This document shows, piece after piece, positions 2,042-63,973 of a stretch of 64,000 bases of DNA. The notes beneath the pieces are model-generated. The model saw only the letters and a program-made list of their open reading frames with translations. It searched no databases and had not been told where the DNA came from. Origin of the DNA: a virus; the IMG/VR virus record IMGVR_UViG_3300027969_000042, positions 1 to 64,000 of that record; one strand, given 5' to 3'. Both the position numbers and the translations under genes were made by a program. Within the stretch, counting starts at the first letter, position 1. Each line of letters opens with the position of its first letter.

Positions 2042-2191
2042 TTAATTATTTTTAATAAAGTATATATTAAATATTTTTTTTATACTTTCTTTACGAGAAT
2101 ACCTTCTATATGACTTATGTGAATTCATCATATTCATCATATGAGTATAAACATTTATACTACCTGTTCTCCTTGGTTTTAATAAGTACAT
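2042..2191 (-). CDS. Small ORF (49 aa) not in the track; ends ...RKESIKKIFNIYFIKNN
   Basis: Manual translation; carries a variant of the RxxKIxxI motif. Confidence 0.45.
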   Translation of the reverse strand: MYLLKPRRTGSINVYTHMMNMMNSHKSYRRYSRKESIKKIFNIYFIKNN

Positions 2192-2291
2192 TTTGTATTA
2201 TCTTTTTCCTTTTAATGGGTCTCATTAAAATATTTATTGTTGAATGAAAATTTCTCATAACATCATTATAAGTAGTTGCACCACTATCCAT
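2160..2291 (-). CDS. Small ORF (43 aa) MDSGATTYNDVMRNF...
   Basis: Manual translation; ATG lies 1 nt after the stop of 2293..2544. Confidence 0.4.
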   Translation of the reverse strand: MDSGATTYNDVMRNFHSTINILMRPIKRKKIIQNVLIKTKENR

Positions 2292-2292
2292 A

Positions 2293-2544
2293 CTATTTTT
2301 TAAGTATTTGATCAATTTTAGCTTCTCTGGCTTCTGCTTTCTCTCTTAATAAACGAGCCTCTCTTTCTTGTGGAGTTTCTTCACGTTTTTCAGACTTATC
2401 TGCTTTATAGTAACCTAAAAAGTCTTCAAGAGCACTGGTATAATTACCATATCGGTCAGATTTCATATAACTACCTAAATCGGAGTATTTATCTTTTATA
2501 CTATATGATTTTCTAAAATCATCAAAATAATTTTTATCGTTCAT
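2293..2544 (-). CDS. Hypothetical protein with C-terminal REAKIDQILKK tag
   Basis: 83-aa ORF. Confidence 0.75.
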   Translation of the reverse strand: MNDKNYFDDFRKSYSIKDKYSDLGSYMKSDRYGNYTSALEDFLGYYKADKSEKREETPQEREARLLREKAEAREAKIDQILKK

Positions 2545-2549
2545 TATAT

Positions 2550-3269
2550 CTATTTGTTTATTTGGTTAAAAATATATTGCATTCCTTTTGTGGCAACCTT
2601 TTTCACATGGTGGAAATAAGGTAATTTATAATCTGGTATATCATACATAACCATATCTATATTAGATGGTTCAATATAATATACGGGTACTTCTACATCT
2701 GTTAAAAATGGAATTTCATTTGCAGGTAAAACTTGTAAAGAAGTTCCGACTATTATACAATAGTCACATTGTTCTGCTGCTTTTACTGCTTTACTCATAT
2801 AATCTGGATTTAATGCCTCACCAAACCAAACGATATGTGGTCTTAGTTGAGATCCCTTATCACATTTGTCTCCTATATTTACGTCTTTTGTCCAATCATA
2901 GATTAGTCTTGGGTCTAATGTTGAACGTACTTTGGTTAGTTCTCCGTGTAAGTGTATTATGTTAGTAGATCCTGCTCTTTCGTGTAAGTTATCTACATTC
3001 TGTGTAACTACAGTTACATCAAATTCATTCTCTAACTCTGCTATAAGTCTATGTGCTAGATTTGGTTGTACAACTTTTAATTGTGCCCTACGTTCATTGT
3101 AGAATTTTAGTACTAATTCTTTATCTTTTCTCCATGCATCGATGGTAGCAACATCTTCAATCTTGAAATTGTTCCATAAGCTTTCCTTAGAGTCTCTAAA
3201 GGTTTCAATCCCGCTTTCTTTCGAGAGTCCTGCTCCAGAGAATACTAATATTTTTTTTCGGTTATTCAT
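2550..3269 (-). CDS. cobB: Sir2/CobB-family NAD-dependent protein deacylase (class III-like)
   Basis: GAGLSKESGIETFR, FYNERR (YxxR), PNLAH, TQNVDNLHERAG, HG, LRPHIVWFGE, GTSLQV. Confidence 0.92.
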   Translation of the reverse strand: MNNRKKILVFSGAGLSKESGIETFRDSKESLWNNFKIEDVATIDAWRKDKELVLKFYNERRAQLKVVQPNLAHRLIAELENEFDVTVVTQNVDNLHERAGSTNIIHLHGELTKVRSTLDPRLIYDWTKDVNIGDKCDKGSQLRPHIVWFGEALNPDYMSKAVKAAEQCDYCIIVGTSLQVLPANEIPFLTDVEVPVYYIEPSNIDMVMYDIPDYKLPYFHHVKKVATKGMQYIFNQINK

Positions 3270-3319
3270 ATTTAATTATAGTTAAAAGGGTAAAATTAGT
3301 TTAGATACTATTAATAAAT

Positions 3320-3329
3320 TTATATATAG
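3320..3329 (+). promoter_or_regulatory. TATATA[GC] motif, putative late promoter of the structural operon
   Basis: TTATATATAG about 20 nt before ATG 3350; the motif recurs before many genes. Confidence 0.5.
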
Positions 3330-3349
3330 ATAAAAACTAAACCGTTTTA

Positions 3350-9094: not shown

Positions 9095-9110
9095 AAAATA
9101 TAAAATAAGT

Positions 9111-10985: not shown

Positions 10986-11009
10986 TTCTCATAAGTAGTA
11001 TAGAAATTT

Positions 11010-11018
11010 AATATATAG
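11010..11018 (+). promoter_or_regulatory. TATATA[GC] motif
   Basis: AATATATAG 3 nt before ATG 11022. Confidence 0.5.
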
Positions 11019-11021
11019 TTT

Positions 11022-15695: not shown

Positions 15696-16217
15696 ATGAA
15701 TTTAAAATATGGTAAAATAGAAATAAATAATGTGGTTTGGTCTTCACCAAATATAGTATCATTTTTTAGTTGGAGAGATGACTTCTTTAAAATACCTAAT
15801 TCCGAAAAGTTTGATGTTTATTTAACAGGAAGTTTTTTGGATAAACTACTTGATAATGTTGGTAATCCTAATGATATTGATATTATTTTAGCGGGAAATC
15901 ATAATATACAGGATATTGAAAATGTGATTTATCAAGGTACAAAAATAGGTATAGAAAAGTATGGTATATTCTTTGATATTCATTGGGATAATAAAGTAAT
16001 TTATAACCCATATACTGATGAAGAAACTAAAAATGATAATATATATATGCTCGGAGATAAATGGATAGTCGATGGTGAAATTAAGAAGCAGTATAAACCG
16101 GCAGTAAAGATAGCAGATAGTTTATATAAAATTACATGGGGTCTCTCTAATAAAAAACATATAGATAAAATGAAAAGTGGTTATATTTATAAAGCACCAC
16201 TTTTAATTAACTACTAA
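15696..16217 (+). CDS. Pol-beta-superfamily nucleotidyltransferase-like protein, paralog 1
   Basis: YLTGSF...PNDIDIIL (GS plus DxD). Confidence 0.6.
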   Translation: MNLKYGKIEINNVVWSSPNIVSFFSWRDDFFKIPNSEKFDVYLTGSFLDKLLDNVGNPNDIDIILAGNHNIQDIENVIYQGTKIGIEKYGIFFDIHWDNKVIYNPYTDEETKNDNIYMLGDKWIVDGEIKKQYKPAVKIADSLYKITWGLSNKKHIDKMKSGYIYKAPLLINY

Positions 16218-16235
16218 AAATATATACAGTGTAAC

Positions 16236-16808
16236 TTGAATATAAAATATGGTAAAATAGATATAGATCTAGATAATTTGTTTATTCCGGATGTAGTATC
16301 ATTTTTTAGTTGGAGAGATGACTTCTTTAAAATACCTAATTCCGAAAAGTTTGATGTTTATTTACATGGTAGTTTTTTACATAAACTACTTGATAATGTT
16401 GGTAATCCTAATGATATTGATATTATTTTAGCGGGAAATCATAATATAGAGGACATTGAAAATGTAATTTACCAAGGTATAAAAATAGGTATAGAAAAGT
16501 ATGGTATATTCATTGATATTCGTTGGGATGATAATATAAACTATCTTTCTCCCGAATTAGCAAGTATTTGTGGATTTGATACATCTAAATCACTTGAAAA
16601 TTCTTCAAATTCTGTAAACGATTATGAATTCTATGTACATGGTGATAAGTTGATAATTGATGGTAAGACTAGAACAAGCTATAAATCTTCAATAAAGTTA
16701 GCAGATAGTTTATACAAAGTTACCTATACTGGAAAAGTAAGTAAAAAACACACATCTAAAGCGAAAAGTGGTTATACTTATAAAGAACCACTTTTAATTA
16801 ACTACTAA
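16236..16808 (+). CDS. Nucleotidyltransferase-like protein, paralog 2 (TTG start)
   Basis: YLHGSF...PNDIDIIL; N-terminal DNA nearly identical to 15696..16217. Confidence 0.6.
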   Translation: MNIKYGKIDIDLDNLFIPDVVSFFSWRDDFFKIPNSEKFDVYLHGSFLHKLLDNVGNPNDIDIILAGNHNIEDIENVIYQGIKIGIEKYGIFIDIRWDDNINYLSPELASICGFDTSKSLENSSNSVNDYEFYVHGDKLIIDGKTRTSYKSSIKLADSLYKVTYTGKVSKKHTSKAKSGYTYKEPLLINY

Positions 16809-17505: not shown

Positions 17506-17707
17506 GTGCTATTATTAGTTCTGATATTTTTTCTTCTATAACCAAATATTCATAGTTTAAGACAATATCAGAAACATCTTCTGAAAATTCATCTTCAATT
17601 ATTAAACAATCTGTGTTCTCGATAAAAGAAATCAATTTCTTTAATCCTTGGCTCTGATAAACCGTTAAAATCTTTTCCTTACTTAAATAGCGCTTGTTAA
17701 ATCCCAT
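17492..17707 (-). CDS. Hypothetical protein
   Basis: 71-aa ORF overlapping the dnaJ start. Confidence 0.65.
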   Translation of the reverse strand: MGFNKRYLSKEKILTVYQSQGLKKLISFIENTDCLIIEDEFSEDVSDIVLNYEYLVIEEKISELIIAHELK

Positions 17708-17847
17708 ATTTTTATTAATTTATTTATTTTTCTTACTCTTAAAAACTTTCTATATTCTACCCAATTCATTCCTGTAGGAACAGGTTGTCCTTGTACACCT
17801 GTTACTCCAATTGGTCCTTGCACACCAAATGTTATATTATTATTCAT
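17683..17847 (-). CDS. Small ORF (54 aa) with collagen-like GxQG triplets and RVRKINKLI tag; not in the track
   Basis: Manual translation MNNNITFGVQGPIGVTGVQGQPVPTGMNWVEYRKFLRVRKINKLIKIWDLTSAI. Confidence 0.55.
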   Translation of the reverse strand: MNNNITFGVQGPIGVTGVQGQPVPTGMNWVEYRKFLRVRKINKLIKIWDLTSAI

Positions 17848-19601: not shown

Positions 19602-19886
19602 TTATTCTTCATCAAAGAAGCCAGAAAAATCTATTTCATCCAGTCTTCCTAAAATTTCATCATAAGGAATAACTTTTTTCATTATATCTAGTACTAAGTT
19701 ATTATAACCAGACCATAACTCTACCTGACCTATAATTTGTTCTAAATCATCATCTATTGTTAGTGTTACAAAATTATCTTTATAATAAAAAGTGGTGTCA
19801 TAGTAGTTATCTTCATAATTTAATGAAATAAGTACTAAAACACCATCTTCAAATTTTCCTAAATATTCAATTATATCAAAGGTCAT
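19602..19886 (-). CDS. Hypothetical acidic protein
   Basis: 94-aa ORF in a coupled gene run. Confidence 0.65.
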   Translation of the reverse strand: MTFDIIEYLGKFEDGVLVLISLNYEDNYYDTTFYYKDNFVTLTIDDDLEQIIGQVELWSGYNNLVLDIMKKVIPYDEILGRLDEIDFSGFFDEE

Positions 19887-20110
19887 TATCCTAATATAGT
19901 TTCAATTTTTTCTTCTCTTTCTTCTTGAGTTATATTTTTCAAGTAACCACCTCTAACTAAGGTATTCATAATACATTGTGCTTGTTTTGTTCTACCATCA
20001 ACATATAAATTCATCATATCTCTGTAATAGTCATGTATATTTTTTCTCTCGTCTTCTGTGTTTAGATTTGATACTTTATCAAGGTCTAAATAGTAGTCTT
20101 CTAATTTCAT
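19886..20110 (-). CDS. Hypothetical protein with C-terminal REEKIETILG tag
   Basis: 74-aa ORF. Confidence 0.7.
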   Translation of the reverse strand: MKLEDYYLDLDKVSNLNTEDERKNIHDYYRDMMNLYVDGRTKQAQCIMNTLVRGGYLKNITQEEREEKIETILG

Positions 20111-20422: not shown

Positions 20423-20755
20423 CTAAAAGTTGGGTTTATCTAAGTAGTATGTATTGTGTTCAGTAATAAACTCAAAGTTATCGTGTAATGTCTGACAATA
20501 TCCATTAAATGAGTGAACATCTTCTTGTGTTAGTTTAAACCATTCACCTCTAACTCTTTTACTTCTAAAAATTCTATGAAGACTTGATTCTATTTTAGTT
20601 CCCCATTTTGATGTAAATGAGTCAACTAAATAAAGATCTGCTGCATTACCAGTCTTAAACTCTTTCAGACGTTTTTCAATCTTTCTTTTAGTAAAACCTA
20701 TTTTATGTAGTTTTTCACCTTCTATATCCGCACAAATTAAATAAATGTTTGTCAT
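20423..20755 (-). CDS. GIY-YIG-related T5orf172/MUG113-like nuclease domain protein
   Basis: IYLI...HKIGFT...KRLKEFKTGN...ESSLHRIF...RGEWF. Confidence 0.8.
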   Translation of the reverse strand: MTNIYLICADIEGEKLHKIGFTKRKIEKRLKEFKTGNAADLYLVDSFTSKWGTKIESSLHRIFRSKRVRGEWFKLTQEDVHSFNGYCQTLHDNFEFITEHNTYYLDKPNF

Positions 20756-20766: not shown

Positions 20767-21169
20767 TTACTTCTTCTTGACTCTCTTTTTTTCTTTTTTT
20801 ATGGATTTAACAACTGGTTTTTTATAGACTTCAACTAAAGTATCACCATAGTTGACTTTTTCATAGTAATATCTAATAGATACCAAATTATGTCTTCTAT
20901 CTATTTCTAATCTACCAAAAACTTTAGCACCTTTGATGTTTACGATATAAGGACCATTTTTTAATAACCTACCTTTTTAATATACTATCACAAACCTCTC
21001 TTCTTATAAGAGGTCTGGATTTATAATTAGAATAAACAACCATTGTATCTGAACTTCTAACACTACTTATTGATTCCATTCCATCATATCCATAGGTATA
21101 GTATTGTACCTTTTGTTGTGAATAAACAAAAGTGGTTAGAAATAGAAATATGATTTTTATTATTTTCAT
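20767..21169 (-). pseudogene. Signal-peptide-bearing protein split by a +1 frameshift in an A5 run (20974-20978)
   Basis: 66-aa ORF MKIIKIIFLFLTTFVYSQ... stops at AAA AGG TAG; removing one A continues it through 70 more codons (GRLLKNGPY...KKEKKRVKKK*). Confidence 0.6.
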
Positions 21170-21348
21170 TTAGAAGATTTCAATAGTGTAAAGTCATGTT
21201 CTCGAACATAAACTCCAGGACTAATATACATATTCTTTTCTGGTAGACCTAATATTCTTCTTAATTTTTTTAAACGATTATGCCTTCTAATTCTTCTTAC
21301 TAACCTATGATCAATTTCATTGGATATAAATCCTGGACTTCTACTCAT
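21166..21348 (-). CDS. 60-aa peptide with two tail-sheath N-terminal-like motifs flanking an RLKKLRRIL tag
   Basis: Likely start ATG 21348: MSRSPGFISNEID...RLKKLRRILG...MYISPGVYVREHDFT. Confidence 0.6.
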   Translation of the reverse strand: MSRSPGFISNEIDHRLVRRIRRHNRLKKLRRILGLPEKNMYISPGVYVREHDFTLLKSSK

Positions 21349-21667
21349 TGACTTTAAATATATTATTGATTTTTCTTTTTCTTGTTGTGTGTTTTGTATC
21401 ACCATATTGATAATCAGCATAAAATAATTGACCACTAGGGGCGGGTAATGGTTTAACGGATACTAAATCAAGGCCGATAGTTTGTGCAGCAACTTTCATT
21501 GCGATTGGAAACATACTTGGAAAACTTGAAGTACTTGTTGTAGTTTGTGATTGGAATCCAGCATATTGAGACATCCAGGTGGATTTAGATCCAGTTAGAC
21601 CCATATTACCAATAAGATTATCCCATTTATATTGGGTATCTTTTCTGGTATTTTTTAAATTTTTCAT
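21341..21667 (-). CDS. Truncated major-capsid-protein (T4 gp23-like) fragment with C-terminal RKRKINNIF tag
   Basis: FPIAMKVAAQTIGLDLVSVKPLPAPSGQLFYADYQYG resembles the gp23-family segment (..IAYDICGVQPMTGPTGLIFAMRSRY); only 108 aa. Confidence 0.65.
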   Translation of the reverse strand: MKNLKNTRKDTQYKWDNLIGNMGLTGSKSTWMSQYAGFQSQTTTSTSSFPSMFPIAMKVAAQTIGLDLVSVKPLPAPSGQLFYADYQYGDTKHTTRKRKINNIFKVNE

Positions 21668-21703: not shown

Positions 21704-21991
21704 TTAGTTTAGAGTTTTATACTCTTGTTTAATTTCAGTTTCTAGTTCAGACTCTTGTTGTTCGTCTAATTGTTTATTAAACTCTTTTTTATACCAAGAA
21801 ATTAGTTGATGAATGATAATATCTTCTGCTTCACCATTACTGACTGCATTATAATCACCTTCTTCAACCCATTCTTTTACTTCATCAGCAAGCATTTCAG
21901 AAACGGTTTCTTCTGTGAATTGTTCTTTAATCTTTACAACTGCATGATGTTTATCAAAAGTGTTCTCATTATATTTTCTTAAATATCTCAT
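21704..21991 (-). CDS. Hypothetical acidic protein, CTS-like N-terminus (MRYLRKYNE)
   Basis: 95-aa ORF. Confidence 0.7.
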   Translation of the reverse strand: MRYLRKYNENTFDKHHAVVKIKEQFTEETVSEMLADEVKEWVEEGDYNAVSNGEAEDIIIHQLISWYKKEFNKQLDEQQESELETEIKQEYKTLN

Positions 21992-22404
21992 ATCTCATTA
22001 TTATATTTTACATAAATACTCATTCCTGAAGCTTCTTTTATAGGATGTGATTTTAATTCCTCTATTGTAAATGGAGTAGTTTCACTATTATTGTCCCATA
22101 GTAATACAACTTGCTCATCATCTAAATCCGTATTCTCTGGAACTAACTTATATTTCTTATTTATAATTTCTACAAATGGAATTAAATGATCTTTAAGTTT
22201 ATCCCATTTTATATTTTTATCATCTACTGAGTAAATCTCTATTACTATACATTCATCTATGAATTGATATTCATACACGCCAACTTCAATATTATTATCA
22301 TCTAGTAAGTAAGCCAGATACATCTCACTAACTTCCTTTAGTTCATTTATAAAGTCTTCAATATGAAAATTTTCAAATAATTTATAAAACTTTAAATATT
22401 TCAC
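21988..22404 (-). CDS. Hypothetical protein, CTS-like N-terminus (GTG start)
   Basis: 138 aa; shares ELxExxExxLAYLxD...IKWDxxKDHxIPF with 51971..52435. Confidence 0.7.
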   Translation of the reverse strand: MKYLKFYKLFENFHIEDFINELKEVSEMYLAYLLDDNNIEVGVYEYQFIDECIVIEIYSVDDKNIKWDKLKDHLIPFVEIINKKYKLVPENTDLDDEQVVLLWDNNSETTPFTIEELKSHPIKEASGMSIYVKYNNEI

Positions 22405-23357
22405 TACTTCAATTTAATATGTACATATAACCAGAATGAGTGTGGTTTAACACTAATCAGAACTTTTTGACCCCATTTTTTAGTCATAACCCAAGTAGTG
22501 AAATTGTTTTTAATATTCAATAATTCACCTTCATCTAATTTACCATTATCCCACTTACCAATACCATAGTATCCAAATGAAATTACTTTATCAGAAATTG
22601 TTGGCTTTGATTCTTTTTCAAAATATCCAGGTTTAAAATCTTTCATATCAGTTTTAATCTTACCAAGAAGTAACATATCGGTATGTGATATATTTACAAT
22701 TTCTTTTTTCAAAGAAGCTGCTGATTTAGATTCAATAGTTACTAACCATCTTAAAACTGAAGGAGTTAGTTTGAATTGTCCAATTGGATTTAATTTATCA
22801 TAAGTAACACCATATTCAAATGTTCCATCACATTTAATACCAAAGTAAAGACCACATTCATTTTTACCATAATCAATCATATCTAAATATCTTGTCAATG
22901 ATTTGAATCTACTAAATACAGATTTAACATCTTCTGATGATAGGTCTGGATAATAATAAAATAATAAGAAATGAGAAGGACATTTTTCAACATTTGAGCC
23001 TTTCTCTTTTTGACCTAGTGCGGTCAATGATTTTAAAAATGAATTAAAGATTGATTTACCAGCAATTGTAATTTCAGCAGACTCATTGATTTCGGTTGAA
23101 ACCAAAATCTCAGGTTCTTTTTCTTCGATACCATTTTGAAGATAAGTATCAATTTGTGATTTAATATCATCTTGTTCAGATTGTTCTAATGTATTTATAG
23201 CATTAGACAGTCTTATATTAGAAGGTATATCTCCTAAAAATCGATTTACTATGTTTTTAACATATTCATCATCATACAAAGACTCAACCCACTCTCCAAG
23301 TGAATTGAAGTCTTGTAATTCAGATTCTTTAATAAACTCTAAATACTTCTTTATCAT
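22404..23357 (-). CDS. Hypothetical protein, candidate internal head protein (MIKKYLEFIKES)
   Basis: 317 aa; preceded by TAATATATAC. Confidence 0.75.
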   Translation of the reverse strand: MIKKYLEFIKESELQDFNSLGEWVESLYDDEYVKNIVNRFLGDIPSNIRLSNAINTLEQSEQDDIKSQIDTYLQNGIEEKEPEILVSTEINESAEITIAGKSIFNSFLKSLTALGQKEKGSNVEKCPSHFLLFYYYPDLSSEDVKSVFSRFKSLTRYLDMIDYGKNECGLYFGIKCDGTFEYGVTYDKLNPIGQFKLTPSVLRWLVTIESKSAASLKKEIVNISHTDMLLLGKIKTDMKDFKPGYFEKESKPTISDKVISFGYYGIGKWDNGKLDEGELLNIKNNFTTWVMTKKWGQKVLISVKPHSFWLYVHIKLK

Positions 23358-26850: not shown

Positions 26851-27342
26851 TTACACCAAAGTAAAACATGCACCAGAAGTAGGTCTACTTATTCCAATAT
26901 AATCTACAGAGGTAGGATTTAAAGAAGTAGTAGGAGAACTTTTAAATGTTATTTCCTCACTTGGTTGTCCTATTGCTACTGGTTCAGTAGAGATAAGTCT
27001 AATTCTCCATATAGGGCTGGTCCTATCTATAATGTGTGATAATAGTGTAGAATAAGTAATAGGTTCCATATCTATTACTTGACTTGATTTAACAACATTT
27101 CCAGTGTATGTTGGATAACCATCTCGATCTAATTCTTGAAAATTTAGTGTACCTAAAAATATATAATCTAAATAAGGAGAAGATATACAAATTGCAGATG
27201 GATATTGAATTGTATAAGAAGATAGTTTATCATTTAGTGAATTGTAAAAGTCTTCAAGATCTTTCCCACTATATATTTGTGAAAAATAATTATCTATTGT
27301 AGTTATTTCTAGTGGATTTGTTTCTGCAGCTCTTATTGGCAT
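26851..27342 (-). CDS. Hypothetical protein, tandem paralog 2
   Basis: AAETNPLEITTI...GISRPTSGAC shared with 27362..27790. Confidence 0.75.
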   Translation of the reverse strand: MPIRAAETNPLEITTIDNYFSQIYSGKDLEDFYNSLNDKLSSYTIQYPSAICISSPYLDYIFLGTLNFQELDRDGYPTYTGNVVKSSQVIDMEPITYSTLLSHIIDRTSPIWRIRLISTEPVAIGQPSEEITFKSSPTTSLNPTSVDYIGISRPTSGACFTLV

Positions 27343-27361: not shown

Positions 27362-27790
27362 TTATAATTGACACGCACCAGAAGTAGGTCTACTTATTCC
27401 TTCATAATTTACTTTAGTAGGGTCTAAAGAAGTTGTAATTGAACTAGGTATTTCAATTATAGAGAAGCCTGAAGACAGTGTAATCTTCCACAAACCTTGG
27501 TCATAGTATAGTGAACCATCATAGATTAGTTTGGCTTGACCTGGAGCTGATCTTTCAATATCTCCAAAGTACATTGGGTAATGGTTCACGTCAAGATAGG
27601 TAAAATTTAATGTGCCTAATAATGTAGCATCTTCAAAATTAGAAGATAAGCAAATTTCTGATGGATATTTATAAGAAAATAATTTATCATTTAGTGCAGC
27701 ATAAAATTCTTGAAGTTGCTTTCCTTCATATATTTTTGAAAAATAACCATTTATTGTAGTTATTTCTAGTGGATTTGTTTCTGCAGCCAT
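27362..27790 (-). CDS. Hypothetical protein, tandem paralog 1
   Basis: 142 aa; same N- and C-terminal motifs as 26851..27342. Confidence 0.75.
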   Translation of the reverse strand: MAAETNPLEITTINGYFSKIYEGKQLQEFYAALNDKLFSYKYPSEICLSSNFEDATLLGTLNFTYLDVNHYPMYFGDIERSAPGQAKLIYDGSLYYDQGLWKITLSSGFSIIEIPSSITTSLDPTKVNYEGISRPTSGACQL

Positions 27791-41435: not shown

Positions 41436-41806
41436 TTATTTAAAATTTTTAATTTTTTGTAATCTAGATTTAAAACTAACTGCGGTTTTATAGTCTCTTT
41501 CCATTAAGGATGGATTATTCCTACTTATTGACTTTACTACACTATCAGATAAACTTAATAGAGTATCACAGTAATCAGTTATAACATTACGTTCAATCTG
41601 TAAATCTAAATATACTTTTTCTAAACTATCAATTGCAGATTTCATAGTCCATATATAATCACTTAATTCATTATATGATCTAAAATAAGTATTAGATTTA
41701 AGATAATCTATAGAATCTTTAATTATTTTTAATTCTTTAATTCTTTTTTCTCAAGTTTTGCAATTGGATCTGATTTGAACCAATTAAATTTTTCTAAGTG
41801 TTTCAT
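41436..41806 (-). pseudogene. Helical protein split by a -1 frameshift in an A6 run (41744-41749)
   Basis: ATG 41806 (TAATG-coupled to the upstream gene) gives 25 aa; one extra A joins it to 41436..41645 as a 123-aa ORF; the -1 frame opens only at this run. Confidence 0.65.
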
Positions 41807-42225
41807 TATTTATTTATCATTTTAACGACTTCCATAAAAGCACGTTCTGTTCCTTTAATTACATATTCGTATAAACCAAACGCATTTACTTCTGTAGGTG
41901 ATTCATCATAGAACTTTATATTGTTTAAGATCTCATCTATATCATTTCTAAACTTTAAATAAAAGTCATATATATCAGAATCATTTATAAATCCTTCAAC
42001 TTTAACATCTTCTGGATTCTTTTCAAATGATTCAATAAATGATTTTAGTTCACCACCACTTTTTTGTATAGTATTTTCAATCATTTTATTTATTTCTTCT
42101 TTAACTTCAGTATATTTAGAACCATCTAAAGATTTAATACCTTCTGATTCTACTGGTGTTTCGGTTTGAACCTGAGTTGTTGACTCATCTGCTTCGTTTA
42201 TAAACTGTGAATATTTCTTTATCAT
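41806..42225 (-). CDS. Hypothetical acidic protein, CTS-like N-terminus (MIKKYSQFINEA)
   Basis: 139 aa; preceded by TAATATATAG. Confidence 0.75.
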   Translation of the reverse strand: MIKKYSQFINEADESTTQVQTETPVESEGIKSLDGSKYTEVKEEINKMIENTIQKSGGELKSFIESFEKNPEDVKVEGFINDSDIYDFYLKFRNDIDEILNNIKFYDESPTEVNAFGLYEYVIKGTERAFMEVVKMINK

Positions 42226-52607: not shown

Positions 52608-52853
52608 TTAAATCTCTGTTTCTTTTATTAAATCAATTATTCTTTGTCTACTATCTTTACATTGTTCTAAACAACTTTGTAACATTTCTAATCCGGCAGG
52701 ATGGTTTAAAATTTTATCTAATCTTTCCTCTGATAATAAATCCACTAAAGTCCAAAACGGACCTAATTGATTTCTCAATTTTGCTTGTGGTGTTTCATTT
52801 ATCCAATTTCCTTCTTGGTCTTTATGACCTGTACTTTCACTAAACTTTTTCAT
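52608..52853 (-). CDS. Hypothetical protein (MKKFSES N-terminus)
   Basis: 81 aa. Confidence 0.65.
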   Translation of the reverse strand: MKKFSESTGHKDQEGNWINETPQAKLRNQLGPFWTLVDLLSEERLDKILNHPAGLEMLQSCLEQCKDSRQRIIDLIKETEI

Positions 52854-54184: not shown

Positions 54185-54838
54185 TTAATTTTTCCAGTTG
54201 AAATTCTTAAAGAACACAAATAAGTCTTTATTGTGTTTTCTTTTACTTTCAAACATATGGTTCTCGGCATTATTTACCATTTCTAGTTTTTGCTCAATAA
54301 TTTGAACTGGGTCTTGTATCTTGTAAGTTTTCTTATTAAAAGTAAATGTATTATATTTTACTTTATCATTATTATCTAAAAAGAAATCTACATTAAAAGT
54401 TTGTCTTTTATTGAAAATACGTTTCCAACTGAAATCTTCTGTGATATATTGATAACCAAGCCTTTCAGAATTTACAGGAATGTTTTCATCACCATATCTA
54501 TTTTTATTAAATCCTCCAGTAGGTCTTTTATCGACAATTAAATCAATGTCTTTAATTTCTCTATTTATTAGAGAATATAAATTTAGAGCTAGTGAACCAG
54601 TAATGATAGAATCAGGATATTGATTACCTATAAATCTTAGATAACTTTCATATCTATCAAAGGTATTTTCAAAAACTTTAAACTTTACGTCTTCGGTAAT
54701 CAATCTAATTTTTAAGTTTCTAATTTCACTCAAAGGTGAAAAATCTGAGGGTATCTCAGTGTAAGTATATCCAACCATATCTCCGTCTTCCATTTTAATT
54801 GTTAAGTTCTTGTAGTAATTCTGACTCAATAAAGTCAT
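54185..54838 (-). CDS. Nucleotidyltransferase-like protein (likely start ATG 54793, MEDG)
   Basis: SIITGSLALNLY...REIKDIDLIV...VDFFL. Confidence 0.75.
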   Translation of the reverse strand: MTLLSQNYYKNLTIKMEDGDMVGYTYTEIPSDFSPLSEIRNLKIRLITEDVKFKVFENTFDRYESYLRFIGNQYPDSIITGSLALNLYSLINREIKDIDLIVDKRPTGGFNKNRYGDENIPVNSERLGYQYITEDFSWKRIFNKRQTFNVDFFLDNNDKVKYNTFTFNKKTYKIQDPVQIIEQKLEMVNNAENHMFESKRKHNKDLFVFFKNFNWKN

Positions 54839-54899: not shown

Positions 54900-54915
54900 A
54901 GTGTTTATATTTCTA

Positions 54916-54923
54916 CAAATATA
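54916..54923 (-). promoter_or_regulatory. TAnnTTTG promoter element
   Basis: TATATTTG 16 nt upstream of ATG 54899. Confidence 0.65.
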
Positions 54924-54966
54924 CAAAAATTATTTTAAATAATTTGACTAATTTTATTATATCTTA

Positions 54967-55407: not shown

Positions 55408-55422
55408 TTTTTTAATTTTTTT

Positions 55423-55839
55423 TTATATTATAAAACCTGTCTGTAGATTATCTAAAAATCTTTGAGGTAAATAAATGTTTCTTAATTTCATTGCAGATTT
55501 AAAAAGAGGTGCAATTTCTTCCACGGTAAAATAAGCTAAGTTACAACCTAATTCAACTACATAAAAAGTTAGATGTTTATTATCTTTAGCAAACTGAAGA
55601 AAAGTATCAACACCCAGTTTAATCTCACCTAAACTTACTGGTTGATACTCTTTTCGTAGTTCTTTTGTTATTATAGCATATGATTGACCTTGAAGTCCTT
55701 CAGATTGTCCATATATAGCACCAAACTTATTTCTTGCGGTTAAGGCAGCACCTTTTCCGTGTCTTCCTTGACGGTTACTACCGAAAACGAAGATCTCATT
55801 TTCTTTTAATTCTTTTATGTAATTAGGTGTTACGTACAT
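55423..55839 (-). CDS. A1S_2505-like phage protein (Macro-related fold suspected)
   Basis: IFVFGSNRQGRHGKGAA...FGAIYGQSEGLQGQSYAIIT...LGCNLA. Confidence 0.75.
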   Translation of the reverse strand: MYVTPNYIKELKENEIFVFGSNRQGRHGKGAALTARNKFGAIYGQSEGLQGQSYAIITKELRKEYQPVSLGEIKLGVDTFLQFAKDNKHLTFYVVELGCNLAYFTVEEIAPLFKSAMKLRNIYLPQRFLDNLQTGFII

Positions 55840-56176
55840 CTTTTCTAATTAAATCTCCAAGTGTTGGTCTTTCAGTTCTTACTGTTCCACCAGGTAGTCC
55901 TAGTAAATCATTTATTCGTTTTTCTCTCAAAACTTCTTTTGAGTAGAAAGATTCCATATCAACTGCATGATACATTTTTCTTCCTTTACTATGAATATAA
56001 TCTAAGTTAGGTAAAAGGTGTAAATTTCCATCGGCAGATTTATTATAACCATAGTCATAATAATTATCATATTCTTCCCATCCAGAATAGTAATAGTAGT
56101 CCCACCACATGGTAGTTTCCATTTTTACTTCTGATCTAAAAAGTTTATCCTCGTATGTTTTATTTATTGCTCTCAT
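55823..56176 (-). CDS. Tyr-rich hypothetical protein with REKRINDLLG tag
   Basis: 117 aa. Confidence 0.65.
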   Translation of the reverse strand: MRAINKTYEDKLFRSEVKMETTMWWDYYYYSGWEEYDNYYDYGYNKSADGNLHLLPNLDYIHSKGRKMYHAVDMESFYSKEVLREKRINDLLGLPGGTVRTERPTLGDLIRKDVRNT

Positions 56177-56492
56177 TGAAAATTTTTCCTATTCTCCAAT
56201 CTCTTATATTTATCTTAAAATCTTCAAATGAATCTGAATCTGCGAACAATTCAATTCTTTCATTTATTTCTTTTATCAAATTTTCTAACTCAGGTGTATT
56301 ATACATACTTTTACCTGGATAAACACATTCTACTTTACTTTCTCCTTGAACTGGTAATACCCACGTAGTTATATTATCATAACTAAGTTGATTTTTAAAT
56401 TCTGCTAGATGTTGGGCAGCAGTTTGACGTGACATCCCAGCAATACTTACATAAAAAGCAAAAATTGGATTATCTAAATTTAATTCTCCCAT
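56160..56492 (-). CDS. Hypothetical protein with C-terminal RDWRIGKIF tag
   Basis: 110 aa. Confidence 0.7.
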   Translation of the reverse strand: MGELNLDNPIFAFYVSIAGMSRQTAAQHLAEFKNQLSYDNITTWVLPVQGESKVECVYPGKSMYNTPELENLIKEINERIELFADSDSFEDFKINIRDWRIGKIFNESNK

Positions 56493-56506
56493 AACAATTT
56501 TATTTG

Positions 56507-56938: not shown

Positions 56939-56940
56939 CT

Positions 56941-57558
56941 TTAATTAAATGTTAAATTATAGACCTCTTGTATTGCCAAAATACCATTTGGTTTAATTTC
57001 TCTTGTTCCAATTCCAGCAAAATTTTCACTTGTAATAACCGGTGTACCTTTTAACTCTCTAAACGATAATGACGTATATGACCATCTAAACCATTTATCT
57101 TTGTCTTGATCAAAAACATAAACTGTTTTTTGATTATCAACTGCCATTTGAACCGCATAACCTGTACCACCATCAACTACTTCAAATTGTGACTTATTAT
57201 AAAATCCTTTTGAACCCTTTTTACCTGCTGCTACAATAGTTCCTATAGCAAATACTTCATCAGAATACTTTACTTGTGCCCAATTTCTTGCTAACAAGTT
57301 CATAAATCTGTGAATACCAAATCTACCTAAAGTTTTATTAGCAATCTGAATTGCTTTTACTCCTTCTTCATAGTCAGTATCACTAATCTCTACTTTATTA
57401 TCAGTAGTATGATACTTTGTCTTATAAGAATAAGCTTTAGTTTTCACACCATAGATAGTACCTTTATTTTCCCAAACAGTGTCCGCACCCTCAGCACCGC
57501 CAGAGTGACAAACAATTTTCGTTAAGTCAATTGGTACATTACCAAATATATCTATCAT
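56941..57558 (-). CDS. SLOG-superfamily (YspA/YAcAr-like) nucleotide-binding protein
   Basis: VCHSGGAEGADTVW...DGGTGYAVQMA...VYVFDQ...FAGIGTR. Confidence 0.65.
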   Translation of the reverse strand: MIDIFGNVPIDLTKIVCHSGGAEGADTVWENKGTIYGVKTKAYSYKTKYHTTDNKVEISDTDYEEGVKAIQIANKTLGRFGIHRFMNLLARNWAQVKYSDEVFAIGTIVAAGKKGSKGFYNKSQFEVVDGGTGYAVQMAVDNQKTVYVFDQDKDKWFRWSYTSLSFRELKGTPVITSENFAGIGTREIKPNGILAIQEVYNLTFN

Positions 57559-57872
57559 ATTCCTAATTCTTTTAATTTATTATCTCTTAAAGAAGATTTA
57601 TAATCTTCTGTCTGTGTTATAAAGTACTCGTCCATTTCTTCTAAAGTAAAATAATAATTTTTTACTTTTTCCTCATAAGGTAAGTTCCACCAATTTGGTT
57701 TATCATAAACAAAACTATCATCTTCGATACAGAAACCATAACCTTCTTTTTCAGTTGCTCCATTCCACATTAAGTCACCACAACCTTTTATTTTGTAGTG
57801 ACCTTTTAGTTTTAATGTTTCATATTGTTTTATACAAACAACTTGATCTCCCATTTCAAATCTATCGTCCAT
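57555..57872 (-). CDS. Hypothetical protein with C-terminal RDNKLKELGI tag
   Basis: 105 aa; FEMGDQVVC start. Confidence 0.7.
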   Translation of the reverse strand: MDDRFEMGDQVVCIKQYETLKLKGHYKIKGCGDLMWNGATEKEGYGFCIEDDSFVYDKPNWWNLPYEEKVKNYYFTLEEMDEYFITQTEDYKSSLRDNKLKELGI

Positions 57873-58044
57873 TTGTTAAAGATAATATTTTATTTTTTCT
57901 TTGTTCTATTTTTTTAAGTTTTTTCTTAATCACTGAAACTCTTTTCATTGTCGCAGATGTAGAAATCTCTTTTGTTCCATAATATGAGTTTATCTGTATT
58001 TTTAACCAAGCTAATTCTGCTTTAAGATTTCCCATGATGATCAA
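57862..58044 (-). CDS. Small basic protein with RKNKILSL tag
   Basis: 60 aa. Confidence 0.5.
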   Translation of the reverse strand: MIIMGNLKAELAWLKIQINSYYGTKEISTSATMKRVSVIKKKLKKIEQRKNKILSLTNGR

Positions 58045-58603: not shown

Positions 58604-58609
58604 TTAACA

Positions 58610-58617
58610 CAAATATA
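58610..58617 (-). promoter_or_regulatory. TAnnTTTG promoter heading the 52-58.6 kb leftward operon
   Basis: TATATTTG 6 nt upstream of ATG 58603. Confidence 0.65.
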
Positions 58618-58643
58618 CGAAAAAAAAGTTTTATATATACATT

Positions 58644-58889
58644 ATGATTATAAAAAGTTTTAATAAGTTCAACGAAAGTCTTAGTGATCCAATTTTTACA
58701 GATGAGATTCCTCATTATGGTGAATACTATACTATTCCTGAATTTAAAGAAGCTATAGAAGATGGTGACATTACAAAAGATGATGGAACTGGTTATTATT
58801 CAAATGGAGAACATATGAGTAGAAAGAATCCTGTTTTTGATTCAGAAGAACCAGATGGTTCAAGATATGTAATTTGGTTTAATAAATAA
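58644..58889 (+). CDS. Acidic hypothetical protein, CTS-like N-terminus (MIIKSFNKFNES)
   Basis: 81 aa; preceded by TTATATATAC. Confidence 0.72.
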   Translation: MIIKSFNKFNESLSDPIFTDEIPHYGEYYTIPEFKEAIEDGDITKDDGTGYYSNGEHMSRKNPVFDSEEPDGSRYVIWFNK

Positions 58890-58904
58890 AAAATATAAAA
58901 TATT

Positions 58905-59135
58905 ATGATAAAAAAATTCAACGAATTTCTAAAAGAGTCTTACAGACCTAATGAAGGACAAGATGGTTCAACTAGTGTTCATTTAAAAGATGAAGAATTG
59001 GACTTATTCCAAACAGAAGGTTCTTTAAGAACTTTAATTACTGATGAGAAAATCTCTTTGGTTGGAAACGATTTATGGTATCACGAAGATGATAAACAAA
59101 CTATTGATACATTAAGTAACTACTTTAGTATATAA
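58905..59135 (+). CDS. Acidic hypothetical protein, CTS-like N-terminus (MIKKFNEFLKES)
   Basis: 76 aa. Confidence 0.72.
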   Translation: MIKKFNEFLKESYRPNEGQDGSTSVHLKDEELDLFQTEGSLRTLITDEKISLVGNDLWYHEDDKQTIDTLSNYFSI

Positions 59136-59149
59136 AAAAATAAACAAAT

Positions 59150-60871: not shown

Positions 60872-60875
60872 AATA

Positions 60876-60901
60876 AAAACCCAACAATTAGTTGGGTTTT
60901 T
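60876..60901. terminator. Bidirectional terminator
   Basis: AAAAACCCAAC-aatt-AGTTGGGTTTTT. Confidence 0.85.
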
Positions 60902-61613
60902 TTATATACATTCTTAAATTCTCCCATAAAAACTGAAAGATATTATCAATTTGGTCATATTTAATTCTAATCAAATTTATATAATTCTCTTCACAATAAT
61001 CATTCTTAATTTTGTCATTTAACTTCATTCTTTGATAAGTTTTAGAGCCACCTAACGTATCAACAGGCTCAAAGTGATATAATCCATCAAACTCAATACA
61101 TGTTCTAATAGACTCAATATAAAAGTCAAATGATATATTATTAATAAATAGTTTATGTTTATAATCTATATTAAATTTTTTAAGAAAATCCATAATTTCT
61201 TTTTCTCCTTCTAAATCATATTTATTTAAAGTATCATTTAAAATAGATTCTTCGTTCTTTCTAAACTCTGGTGCCAATCCTTCTAAATGAGATTTAGCTC
61301 TTTGTTCATAAACAATACCATTATAAATAACTTTAATATTATTTAGTGCTCCTTCATACTTAGTTAAAGAATAATCATATTTATCTTTCCATACTTCCTT
61401 GGCCTCTAATATAAATTGTTCGGTAGTTTTTTTATAAAGTACTTTCTCTGGACATCTACCAGATAAATGCTTTATTACTTTTTGATAATAAACATTATCA
61501 TCAAATTTAACTTTTATAGTATCTGATACCTTTACTTTATCAGATAAATCTATGTATTCATACTTATATCCGTGTATATTATGTGCCTTTTCTAAAAATT
61601 TTAATCTTGTCAT
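60888..61613 (-). mobile_element. Free-standing homing-endonuclease-like gene (DUF723-type repeats plus PD-(D/E)xK/DUF559-like domain)
   Basis: FLEKAHNIHGYKYEY / FILEAKEVWKDKYDYS repeats; FDFYI...CIEFDGLYHF...KNDYC...LIRIKY. Confidence 0.75.
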
Positions 61614-61637
61614 ATACTATATATCAAAAAGTTATAC

Positions 61638-61674
61638 CCCCTTTCAAAACTTTTTTAAAAAATGTTGAAAGGGG
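61638..61674. promoter_or_regulatory. Imperfect 37-bp palindrome in the divergent endonuclease/uvsX spacer
   Basis: CCCCTTTCAA...TTGAAAGGGG with no adjacent T-run. Confidence 0.55.
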
Positions 61675-61725
61675 AGAGTAATAAGTTTATATATACATTA
61701 TAGAAAAAATTAATAATTAAAGATT

Positions 61726-62958
61726 ATGGCAAAAGTTGCAAAAGAAGTTAAAAAATTTGAATTTAGTAAAGTAGGAACAATTCTAGATAATATTGGAAAA
61801 AGTATTCCAATTGTTATTGAAAAAGAAATAAAAGAAAAAGTATTCATTTCAACGGGTGTATATTTAGTAGATGCTGCAATGTCAGGTAGATTACTTAATG
61901 GTGGTATAGCGACTAATAGAATTAGTGTTTTTGCTGGTGAATCAGGTGCAGGAAAGTCGTTTATGTGTTTCTCGTGTGCAAAACACGCACAAAAAGCAGG
62001 ATATAGTGTTATTTATATTGATACTGAAAATGCTATTGATTTGGAAGATTTACCAAAATATGGTGTAGATAATTCAATAGATAAATTTAGATTAGTTCGT
62101 TCGAATAAAGTTGAAGATGTGAATATGTTATTAACACAATTGATTGATGATTTAAAAGAACAAAAAATGGCTGGTTATGAATTACCTAAATTACTAATAG
62201 TTATTGATTCATTGGGTCAAATGGCTTCAAATAAAGAAAAAAATGACTTATTAAAAGGAGATATTAAACAAGATATGACTAAAGCTAAAGCATTAGGATC
62301 TTTATTTAGAAGTATCAATACAGATCTTGGATATTTAGATATTCCACTTTTAGTTGCAAATCACACATATTTAACTATGGATCTTTTTCCTAAATCTGTA
62401 ATGAAAGGTGGTAATGGTCTATTATATTCTGCGTCAGTTATCGGTATGATGTCAAAATCACAACTTAAAACTGGTGAAGAAGATGATATGGATTTAGGTT
62501 CAAGTGGTATTTCAGTTTTATTTAAAACACAGAAGTCTAGATTGGCAAAACCTAAGAAAATCAGATTTGATATTTCATTTGCACATGGTATGAATCCTTT
62601 CACTGGATTAGATGCTTTCTGTAGACCAGAGTACTTTGATAAAATTGGTATTGCGAAAGGTAAAATGGAAGTTGATAAATCAACTGGTGAAATGAAGTTT
62701 ATTCCGGGTGGAATTAGATGGTATATTGATCACTTAAATAAATCAGTACATACTAAACAATTATTCACTCAAGAGGTATTCACTCAAGAGGTATTAGAAA
62801 AAATGGAACCAATTGTAAATGATTACTTTAGATTTAAGTCTTTAGATGAAATAGAAGACGTTGAGAAAGAATTCAATAGTATCATCGGTGATGAAGATGA
62901 TACAACAGATGATAACGGATTTACAGACTCAGCAGATGCTGATGATATTTTCGGATAA
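61726..62958 (+). CDS. uvsX: UvsX/RecA-like recombinase
   Basis: ISTG...D..MSG...GGI; AGESGAGKS; IYIDTE; IVIDSLG; DMTKAK; VANHTY; GGNGLLYSAS. Confidence 0.92.
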   Translation: MAKVAKEVKKFEFSKVGTILDNIGKSIPIVIEKEIKEKVFISTGVYLVDAAMSGRLLNGGIATNRISVFAGESGAGKSFMCFSCAKHAQKAGYSVIYIDTENAIDLEDLPKYGVDNSIDKFRLVRSNKVEDVNMLLTQLIDDLKEQKMAGYELPKLLIVIDSLGQMASNKEKNDLLKGDIKQDMTKAKALGSLFRSINTDLGYLDIPLLVANHTYLTMDLFPKSVMKGGNGLLYSASVIGMMSKSQLKTGEEDDMDLGSSGISVLFKTQKSRLAKPKKIRFDISFAHGMNPFTGLDAFCRPEYFDKIGIAKGKMEVDKSTGEMKFIPGGIRWYIDHLNKSVHTKQLFTQEVFTQEVLEKMEPIVNDYFRFKSLDEIEDVEKEFNSIIGDEDDTTDDNGFTDSADADDIFG

Positions 62959-62977
62959 AAATAAAAAAATATTGCTT

Positions 62978-63118
62978 ATGAAAATTTTAGACAGAATGTT
63001 ATTATTTTGTATGTGGTTATCATTAAGGTTTGATAAATTAGATACAACAGATAGAAAGATATTTGACTGTATACCAGAACAAAAGAACAAAAAGAGAAGA
63101 GAAATGCAACTTATATAA
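62978..63118 (+). CDS. Small hypothetical protein (46 aa)
   Basis: ATG 62978 within the track ORF 62861..63118. Confidence 0.4.
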   Translation: MKILDRMLLFCMWLSLRFDKLDTTDRKIFDCIPEQKNKKRREMQLI

Positions 63119-63174
63119 AAATTAAAACCCCTTTATTAAAGTGGGTTTAAAAACAAAAAAAAATAAAAATTATT

Positions 63175-63348
63175 ATGACAAAACAAGAAATTTACGAACA
63201 GTTGAAAACTTTGTGGGAAGACTTTGATACAAATCACAACAAAACAACTAAGAAATCTGATGCAGATGCTCGTAAAGCATTAGGAGAAATTAAAAAATTA
63301 GTAACTCCTTATAGAACGGAATCGGTTAATGAAGCTAAAGCACAATAA
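63175..63348 (+). CDS. Hc1 (histone H1-like, Bacteroidota-type) small DNA-binding protein; not in the track
   Basis: Manual translation MTKQEIYEQLKTLWEDFDTNHNKTTKKSDADARKALGEIKKLVTPYRTESVNEAKAQ; ARKA..E..K....YR.ES pattern. Confidence 0.7.
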   Translation: MTKQEIYEQLKTLWEDFDTNHNKTTKKSDADARKALGEIKKLVTPYRTESVNEAKAQ

Positions 63349-63425
63349 GTAGTAGTAGTTTATAGTTTATTTTTCCTTATTTCTTAAAATAAGGTGGTGG
63401 AAGTTCAACTAACCGGTTGACCCTG

Positions 63426-63456
63426 AAAAACCCTCAAATCTAATTTGAGGGTTTTT
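63426..63456. terminator. Bidirectional terminator
   Basis: AAAAACCCTCAAAT-cta-ATTTGAGGGTTTTT. Confidence 0.88.
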
Positions 63457-63973
63457 TGTTTTCTCCATAACTTAAAGTACTTTTCTTATACCAAAGTATC
63501 CAATAAAGTACTGTAAATAAAGATCCAAATGGTGTTTTTAAATCAGAGTAGTATCTAATAATAAAATCAATAACATGTCCAAAAATCATTATAAAAAGAA
63601 ATAAGATAAACATCTTATCAAGTTTTTTAGAGTAAAGTGATCTTTTAATATTGTTGATATGTTGTTTTTTTATAAAAAATCTACTAGTCAGATCTTGTAA
63701 CTTTTCGTCTCTACTACAAGACGTACACATTTTAAAATCTTCTGATCTTTCATTCTGTGAAACCCTTGTAAATATACCACTAAGTTGATTAAATTTATTT
63801 ACTTGATTTTGTTCTATATCTGGTATAATATCTTGTTTACAAGAATAACATTTGATACCTTGTTGTACATCAAATGTTATTAGTGTTTTTTTCTTACGTA
63901 ATCGAAATAATAAAACTGATACAATAATCATTACTAATAATGACATTAAAGTAAAAAAGAAAGATACTGTCAT
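63440..63973 (-). CDS. Membrane protein with CxxC...CxxC zinc finger and internal RDEKLQDL tag
   Basis: N-terminal TM helix, KCYSC...MCTSC, two C-terminal TM helices. Confidence 0.75.
   Translation of the reverse strand: MTVSFFFTLMSLLVMIIVSVLLFRLRKKKTLITFDVQQGIKCYSCKQDIIPDIEQNQVNKFNQLSGIFTRVSQNERSEDFKMCTSCSRDEKLQDLTSRFFIKKQHINNIKRSLYSKKLDKMFILFLFIMIFGHVIDFIIRYYSDLKTPFGSLFTVLYWILWYKKSTLSYGENKKPSN

Follow-up and report, generated by a model that had tools for sequence, protein, structure and literature searches.

A short peptide with the consensus R-x-x-K-[IL]-x-x-[IL]-[LIF] recurs at or near the C-termini of small, mutually unrelated proteins encoded in the virus contig IMGVR_UViG_3300027969_000042 and appears to be a portable docking or address helix that is read by one shared partner. 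This interpretation is given a probability of roughly 0.55, and the partner itself can be named only as a candidate. The carriers are orphans with fast turnover, mostly encoded outside of the probable late transcription units; the tag is conserved in those orthologs that exist and comes in three dialects. The window analyzed here is the first 64 kb of this linear contig of 177,545 bp, which has about 28% G+C, an estimated CheckV completeness of 74% and proteins rich in K, I, L and N. The major capsid protein is 71% identical to that of LR745206 (634,780 bp), 70% to that of LR756502 (642 kb), 52-53% to those of LR756504 and LR756501 (735 kb), 35% to that of LR756500 and 29% to those of the Lak phages and Tenacibaculum phage PTm1. 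The genomes of 634-735 kb are the 'Mahaphage' of Al-Shayeb et al. 2020, with predicted hosts among Bacteroidetes (PMC7162821). The word 'C-terminal' is absent from that article, and no published description of the C-terminal tag was found in literature searches. An earlier annotation made from the letters of the window (hereafter, the original prediction) had described the tag and had also labeled the carriers 'effectors' and the host 'Flavobacterium'; both labels were given without evidence.

Crude gene calling yielded 190 genes on the contig and 955 in the complete LR745206 genome; for LR756501, LR756500 and Lak-B1, the analysis covered 400 kb each. Beside the strict pattern given above, a wider version allowing [KR] at position 4 and a relaxed pattern, R...h..h (h, aliphatic) within the last 18 residues, were scored, and the controls were 300 shuffles of whole proteins or of 30-residue blocks, with a motif counted as C-terminal when it starts in the last 20 residues. 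The strict pattern occurs 10 times on the contig (expected 1.0 with whole-protein and 0.8 with block shuffling), in eight cases C-terminally (0.06-0.09 expected); the wider version yields 14 instances (1.3 expected), 11 of these C-terminal (0.1 expected). In LR745206, the strict motif is found 103 times against 4.0 expected, and 89 instances are C-terminal against 0.5 expected. None of the 300 shuffles matched the observed counts, so that the enrichment over composition-matched sequences anticipated in the original prediction is borne out. The tag starts in the last 20 residues in 11 of the 14 instances on the contig and in 97 of 113 in LR745206, and an unsupervised search for C-terminally enriched spaced triplets returned R...h..h as the top signal.

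The relaxed pattern delineates the spread of the tag. It is present in 23 of 180 proteins of the contig (3 expected), 202 of 920 in LR745206 (21 expected), 173 of 903 in LR756504 (22 expected) and 37 of 514 in the first 400 kb of LR756501 (8.8 expected). By the same count, the C-terminal excess is absent in LR756500 (14; 11 expected), PTm1 (11; 7.6 expected) and Lak-B1 (9; 9.7 expected), the last of these translated with table 11, although another code is probable for Lak phages. A DNA pattern for R-D-x-K-I-x-x-I-L has 20 matches in LR745206 and 15 in LR756502, and its reversal has none in either genome. The tagged proteins thus comprise 13-22% of the proteome, about one in eight in the phage studied here and up to one in five in its relatives of 634-735 kb. 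The C-termini of LR756500 are enriched in other end motifs, '[NQ]-A-[DE]' and '[DE]-[FYW]-G', which may represent a different tag or tails of the clamp-binding type.

The tag is selected at the peptide level. Chance recurrence in an AT-rich proteome, or translation of a DNA or RNA signal such as a promoter, terminator or recombination site, might be suspected from the base and residue composition of the genome and from the location of the tag just upstream of the next start codon; this explanation is computationally refuted and retains virtually no probability. Apart from the counts, which no shuffle reached, the synonymous codons at the fixed positions of 97 tags in LR745206 track genome usage: the arginine at position 1 is encoded by AGA in 71%, AGG in 16% and CGN in 11% of the cases, compared to 77, 12 and 10% genome-wide. 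The I/L exchanges within the tag alter the first codon base. There is no DNA similarity around the tag beyond its 27 coding bases, which rules out a mobile DNA repeat or a miniature inverted-repeat transposable element (MITE). Finally, among stop-to-stop open reading frames (ORFs) that are not genes, the tag ends only 1 of 883 on the contig and 3 of 3431 in LR745206, compared to 11 of 190 and 97 of 955 genes, respectively. The combination of genome-like codon usage with tag-poor non-coding frames points to selection on the peptide.

The dialects of the tag are uniform inside each genome and differ between clades. The contig shares with LR745206 and LR756502 the form K-[SQ]-x-[IL]-R-[DEN]-x-K-[IL]-[NKD]-x-[IL]-[LF]; LR756504 uses [FY]xT[LI]xE[YH]-R-K-x-[KIR]-I-[EDN]-[NED]-L-[LI], and LR756501 uses E[WF]KN[FWY]K-R-T-[KE]-L-[IM]-D-[KE]-M-L-N. 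Common to all three are R1, aliphatic residues at positions 5 and 8, and L9, which on a helical wheel share one face with K-4 and K4. The opposite face exchanges charge between clades (D2/K6 versus K2/E6) and probably consists of solvent-exposed, helix-stabilizing pairs. The motif is followed by a tail of 0-9 residues (mode 1) with a mixture of K, N, D and E, or by 22-27 residues in a form that continues with GLP.

The best sampled carrier family is that of ORF 19886-20110, which has 88 metagenomic homologs and orthologs in LR745206 and LR756504 that also end in the tag; the family keeps it in all three clades. In an alignment of 27 members, R65, E67, K68 and L73 are invariant, an indel of four residues immediately precedes R65, and the residues that follow the motif vary. 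The AlphaFold model of this protein consists of a helical body with a predicted local distance difference test score (pLDDT) of 81-93 and a terminal helix (residues 62-73) with a pLDDT of about 53; the tag is thus modeled as a terminal helix poorly anchored to the body.

Given that the tag is terminal, helical and basic, with a net charge of +1.8 to +2.8 and three aliphatic residues sharing one side, it might also be a weak amphipathic helix recruiting its carriers to the cytoplasmic side of the membrane, in the manner of the C-terminal helices of MinD and FtsA; the basic form of the tag, RKxKIxxIF, resembles the MinD tail. Such membrane targeting seems quite improbable. The mean hydrophobicity of the tag (-0.25 to -0.38) is below that of untagged C-termini, and its hydrophobic moment (0.24-0.34) is not above theirs, on a simple scale that does not separate MinD tails either. 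Furthermore, positions 2 and 6 of the common form are occupied by D, E or N, aromatic residues are missing from it, and lipid binding does not require an invariant arginine at one exact position.

The tagged proteins are small, with a median of 94 residues compared to 144 for all proteins and a range of 35-731. When the tag and the eight preceding residues are removed, the bodies are BLAST singletons in 25 of 25 cases on the contig, 206 of 212 in LR745206, 132 of 189 in LR756504 and 29 of 40 in LR756501. Pfam has no match to any of 55 tagged LR745206 proteins with 100 or more residues, and only two of them match PHROGs families, both of unknown function, in agreement with the original prediction that no family names the tag. 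In a control set of 55 random untagged proteins of 100-250 residues, 28 Pfam families were found, including DHFR, ClpP, deformylase and an RF-1 domain. The strict motif ends none of the giant virion proteins, as also stated in the original prediction. Six tagged genes of the contig have orthologs in LR745206 in which the tag is kept; most other tagged genes have no ortholog, which implies fast turnover. Some carriers of the basic form are pieces of structural genes, with similar pieces in LR745206. On the contig, a capsid protein C-terminus carries an inserted tag, and a piece of the prohead scaffold/protease is tagged as well (Table 1).

These bodies bear on the possibility that the tag is the relic of one exploded family, in which tandem duplicates of a small ancestor diverged while the last helix was kept for structure or oligomerization. 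All tagged proteins are orphans, the gene following a tagged one is itself tagged in 42% of the cases versus 17% after untagged genes, and long tandem arrays of genes for 65-165 residues with an extended conserved C-terminus exist in LR756504 ([FY]xT[LI]xE[YH]-RK...) and LR756501 (E[WF]KN[FWY]K-RT...). Nevertheless, such descent is unlikely. The bodies are BLAST singletons even within the arrays, and the carriers differ widely in length. Pieces of capsid, scaffold repeat and collagen-like fiber genes cannot share such an ancestry, and the capsid and collagen fragments already indicate different folds among the tagged bodies. In addition, the linker is prone to indels, and the model shows no confident packing of the helix against the body.

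The genomic context suggests when the tagged proteins are made. Two promoter-like motifs are enriched in the intergenic DNA of the contig and LR745206, a TATATA-type box and TAnnTTTG. The former lies upstream of most giant protein genes (29 of 40 in LR745206, 17 of 19 on the contig) and, on the contig, of 73 of 104 transcription-unit starts; the latter, which precedes other units, is the Bacteroidetes -7 box (PMC6847099). The two are probably late and host-type promoters, respectively. In LR745206, the C-terminal tag is found in 8% of the genes in TATATA-only units compared to 22-29% elsewhere (Fisher p = 4e-6 for TATATA-only versus TAnnTTTG-only units), and on the contig in 6% compared to 16%. 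Judging by these promoter-like motifs, on which the timing classes are based, the C-tagged proteins would be mostly non-late. A second, N-terminal tag, MK[HY][LI]Kx[FY]xE, shows the opposite tendency: it is present in 15 proteins of the contig and 72 of LR745206, mostly not the C-tagged ones, is enriched in TATATA units and also occurs in LR756500, which lacks the C-terminal tag.

Overlap with the following gene is more frequent for tagged genes than for small genes without the tag (61 versus 37%, 50 versus 22% and 44 versus 20%), and the tag lies within the last 9-18 residues, as could be expected if these residues, while in the exit tunnel, modulated termination or re-initiation on the overlapping gene. 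The lack of Shine-Dalgarno sequences in Bacteroidetes mRNAs (PMC6847099) can be counted in favor of such a nascent-chain effect. On the whole, this effect is highly improbable: the distance of the tag to the stop codon varies as described above, whereas known arrest peptides need exact spacing; 37 of 169 tagged genes in LR745206, roughly a fifth, have no same-strand neighbor; and the overlap bias may merely reflect dense arrays of small genes.

The interpretation of the tag as a docking or address helix can be outlined as follows. The segment of about 13 residues, with 0-9 polar residues after it, would fold into a short helix that a variable linker joins to the body; the fixed face of this helix would dock on a single shared reader encoded by the phage or the host; and the reader would allow the phage to treat its non-late accessory proteins as a class with respect to localization, delivery to a target, processing or turnover. 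Of the proposal in the original prediction, a portable module recruiting effectors to one hub, the portable, peptide-level, C-terminal module on unrelated small proteins stands, and the recruitment to a hub is a conjecture for which no partner was identified. Several considerations weigh against the docking interpretation. Docking is deduced from the anatomy of the tag, and no reader was found; some 30 clade-specific genes are distributed among the genomes like the tag, so that no single partner is picked out. The uniformity of the dialect within a genome could also be explained by lineage-specific family expansion or gene conversion, and the tandem arrays of LR756504 and LR756501, with their extended conserved C-terminus, count in the same direction. 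The excess of overlap with the next gene (61 versus 37%) would also be predicted by a role in translation, the gene calls are crude, and the timing classes come from promoter-like motifs rather than expression. A more elaborate version can be proposed only tentatively. Under this version, the addressing system is owned by the phage, with a dedicated and possibly phage-encoded reader that sorts, processes or clears 13-22% of the proteome, the tag and the reader co-evolve into dialects, and the parallel N-terminal tag serves late packaged proteins.

One candidate for such a reader, among the 30 or so genes with the appropriate phyletic pattern, is an M16 (insulinase/pitrilysin-type) zinc peptidase whose gene is cut by the start of the contig. 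The orthologs in LR745206 and LR756504 consist of about 370 residues with an intact HxxEH motif. The peptidase is encoded in all five tag-bearing genomes, in two copies in LR756501, and is absent in LR756500, Lak-B1 and PTm1; it has over 1100 metagenomic homologs. Complex prediction for two copies of this peptidase and a tagged 74-residue protein gave a score of 0.00, which counts neither for nor against binding.

The other peptidase of interest is a bona fide phage ClpP (PF00574, E = 2.6e-67). The gene just downstream of ClpP is tag-ended in both the phage studied here (REKKIDDLLDNNIGFF) and LR745206 (RDYKIQKIME). In the former, it encodes an orphan of 153 residues, without a homolog in the relatives, in which the tag is followed by an IGF-like tip (IGFF); this tip resembles the ClpP-docking loops of ClpX. 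As the reader, ClpP was discarded due to phyletic mismatch given that ClpP is missing from the tagged LR756501 and present in the tagless LR756500. The contig yielded no unfoldase, its AAA matches being limited to a clamp loader and a RecA-like protein.

Both peptidases enter the possibility, also raised in the original prediction, that the tag is a degron or processing signal. The helix would mark non-late orphans for ClpP with a host unfoldase, for a host AAA+ protease or for M16, so that early proteins, along with structural gene fragments that might be poisonous, are cleared as assembly starts. The absence of the tag from Pfam-recognizable enzymes and giant virion proteins, its depletion in probable late units, the tagging of capsid and scaffold fragments, the tagged gene next to ClpP in two phages and the co-occurrence of M16 with the tag (five genomes with both, three with neither) are compatible with this scenario. 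Still, degradation is one possible reading among several and a rather doubtful one: the distribution of ClpP does not follow the tag, the contig lacks a recognizable unfoldase, about 30 other genes show the same phyletic pattern as M16, and the tag is located 0-9 residues from the end whereas ssrA-type degrons are read through their last 2-3 residues and the carboxylate.

Other candidates were considered and dropped. The sliding clamp is not favored as the leading reader because DIFG, rather than the tag, is found at the end of PolB and of the RecA-like protein: the C-terminal piece of PolB ends with ...VVMDIFGGF and the RecA/UvsX-like protein with ...ADADDIFG. DIFG is a second shared tail and resembles the clamp-binding tails of T4. 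The gp45 Pfam model has no match on the contig; a gene for 260 residues beside PolB, without a Pfam match, may encode the clamp. A clade-specific protein of 129 residues, which has the same distribution among the genomes as the tag, is the most conserved gene product, 95% identical to its LR745206 counterpart (median 60%), with 1684 metagenomic homologs at 86-98% identity; it was abandoned as the hub, with weak P-loop kinase leads in the ESM Atlas, an AlphaFold pLDDT of 62 and no Foldseek match at E <= 0.001. A link to the gap in PolB through translational bypass or a nascent peptide was rejected because the peptide upstream of the gap has no tag, and NUMOD/IENR nuclease motifs, a helix-turn-helix, an intein and read-through of a group I intron do not fit in spacing or context.

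Known systems provide partial parallels. The capsid targeting sequence (CTS) of T4, found on the late packaged proteins IPI-III and Alt, is N-terminal and is cut after L/I-x-E by the prohead protease. Like the present tag, it is a short portable peptide that addresses unrelated proteins of one phage to one destination; unlike it, the present tag is C-terminal and resides on orphans that are probably mostly non-late (8% in TATATA-only units versus 22-29%). The N-terminal tag of the same genomes is the CTS-like one. The encapsulation peptides of microcompartments and the cargo-loading peptides of encapsulins are terminal helices of 10-20 residues on a poorly conserved linker, with one reader. 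The tag is similarly a terminal helix on an indel-prone linker (modeled pLDDT of 53 compared to 81-93 for the body), but those peptides are carried by enzymes and bind a shell protein whereas the carriers here are orphans without a recognizable domain. No shell-type gene appeared among the proteins scanned, although no systematic search for one was made.

Clamp-binding tails, such as those of T4 gp43, gp33 and gp55 on gp45, and the PCNA-interacting protein (PIP) box bring several clients to one ring through a short C-terminal h-x-x-h-h motif. The tag has the same location and spacing; however, no replication enzyme is tagged here, PolB and the RecA/UvsX-like protein having the DIFG-type tail instead. 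In contrast to the PIP box, with its conserved Gln three residues before the first hydrophobic position, Gln is absent, Arg is fixed, and position 2 is D, E, N or K, K, or T depending on the dialect. Degrons and adaptor tails of AAA+ proteases (the ssrA tag, the MuA tail and the ClpX-binding tail of SspB) direct many proteins to one machine through a short C-terminal peptide. The tag likewise is one short C-terminal peptide on many unrelated proteins, but it shows no sequence likeness to these tails, forms a helix, lies at a variable distance from the carboxylate and is not accompanied by ClpP in a consistent way across genomes.

The tagged clade includes the largest known phage genomes, which consist mostly of small genes that cannot be annotated, and a label on a fifth of these gives a handle on them. 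The tag defines a class of proteins that is treated alike by the phage, probably an early accessory or host-takeover set, and a tag peptide of 13 residues would be a simple bait for its reading machine. With a reader encoded by the phage, the virus would possess a sorting or turnover system of its own, of a size for which no phage precedent is known; with a host protein in this role, many phage effectors would converge on one target in Bacteroidota. Co-variation with the three dialects offers a way to search for the reader across more than 1000 metagenomic contigs.

Within the window (Table 1), all 12 peptides that the original prediction listed with coordinates are present in the respective minus-strand ORFs, and its additional stub, RYNKISQII, was located in a frame not called as a gene. 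The pattern as it was written is matched exactly by only five of these 13 (REAKIDQIL, RVRKINKLI, REEKIETIL, RLKKLRRIL and RKRKINNIF), another two deviate by an R at position 4, and the rest are looser. That the tag usually ends the protein holds for eight peptides located 1-9 residues from the end (those in the ORFs starting at 2042, 2293, 17683, 19886, 21341, 56160, 57555 and 57862). It does not hold for the ORFs starting at 21166 and 55823, which carry an extension of 25-27 residues (the '...LLG[LM]P' form), nor for the matches deep inside ORFs 54185-54838 and 63440-63973; the latter two are best taken as chance internal matches rather than tags. The predicted number of about 13 therefore mixes in two or three chance internal matches, and it misses relaxed tags in ORFs 2160-2291, 41436-41645 and 52608-52853.

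Table 1. Tag instances and other features of the window and of the remainder of the contig (residues to the stop refer to the distance between tag and stop codon).
Feature	Position	Strand	Carrier and remarks
RKESIKKIF, loose tag (S at position 4)	2069..2095	-	49-residue ORF 2042-2191; 8 residues to stop; counterpart at LR745206 308370-308522 ends ...SVKKIFNI
RKKIIQNVL, relaxed tag	2184..2210	-	43-residue ORF 2160-2291; has I4, one of the variants in the LR756504 dialect
REAKIDQIL, tag (strict match)	2302..2328	-	83-residue orphan ORF 2293-2544; 2 residues to stop
RVRKINKLI, tag	17713..17739	-	54-residue ORF 17683-17847; 9 residues to stop; body is a collagen-like Gxx fragment similar to giant fiber proteins
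REEKIETIL, tag	19892..19918	-	74-residue ORF 19886-20110; 1 residue to stop
RLKKLRRIL, internal tag	21250..21276	-	60-residue ORF 21166-21348 (outside gene call); followed by GLPEKN and 21 residues; flanked by two sheath-N-terminus-like peptides
RKRKINNIF, basic tag	21356..21382	-	108-residue ORF 21341-21667; 4 residues to stop; a diverged major capsid protein N-terminus forms the body
RLQKIKNFK, relaxed tag	41439..41465	-	69-residue ORF 41436-41645; at the very end
RQRIIDLIK, relaxed tag	52623..52649	-	81-residue ORF 52608-52853; 4 residues to stop
RNLKIRLI, internal match	54695..54721	-	217-residue ORF 54185-54838; 169 residues from the end
RYNKISQII, stub	about 54938-54964		
REKRINDLL, tag	55901..55927	-	117-residue ORF 55823-56176; followed by GLPGG, 25-residue extension; LR745206 269176-269556 matches the ORF (RERKIDQILGL and 22 residues) and adjoins the ortholog of ORF 56160-56492
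RDWRIGKIF, tag	56178..56204	-	110-residue ORF 56160-56492; 5 residues to stop; LR745206 ortholog ends RNWRLGELLKNGDN
RDNKLKEL(G), tag	57561..57587	-	105-residue ORF 57555-57872; 1 residue to stop; LR745206 ortholog ends RDRKINSIIND
RKNKILSL(T), tag	57874..57900	-	57-residue ORF 57862-58035; 3 residues to stop
RDEKLQDL, internal match	63686..63712	-	177-residue membrane-like ORF 63440-63973; 81 residues from the end
Tag instances beyond the window	69875, 70095, 93452, 125108, 131305, 135523, 170732		contig positions
Capsid C-terminus with inserted tag	69875-70108		
Prohead scaffold/protease piece, tagged	170732-170863		
N-terminal tag, examples	21988-22404, 22404-23357, 41806-42225, 58644-58889, 58905-59135		window
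M16 peptidase gene	1-1077	+	window
RecA/UvsX-like protein	61726-62958	+	window
129-residue protein	108310-108699	+	contig
ClpP locus	125108-126135	-	contig
PolB, C-terminal piece	132621-133922	-	contig
260-residue gene beside PolB	135704-136486		contig
T5orf172/MUG113-type nuclease gene	20423-20755	-	window
Nuclease and structural fragments	20423-20755 / 20969-21667	-	window
Tandem paralog pair, first	15696-16217 / 16236-16808		shared end ...SGY[IT]YK[AE]PLLINY
Tandem paralog pair, second	26851-27342 / 27362-27790		shared end ...GISRPTSGAC...

The nuclease gene of the T5orf172/MUG113 type (GIY-YIG-like) lies beside the capsid N-terminal fragment encoded by ORF 21341-21667 and ORF 21166-21348, and together with the structural fragments it looks like the debris or cargo of a homing-type element; despite this debris-like setting, the capsid fragment has a counterpart in LR745206. 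Elsewhere in the window, two tandem pairs of paralogs have near-identical C-termini of their own.

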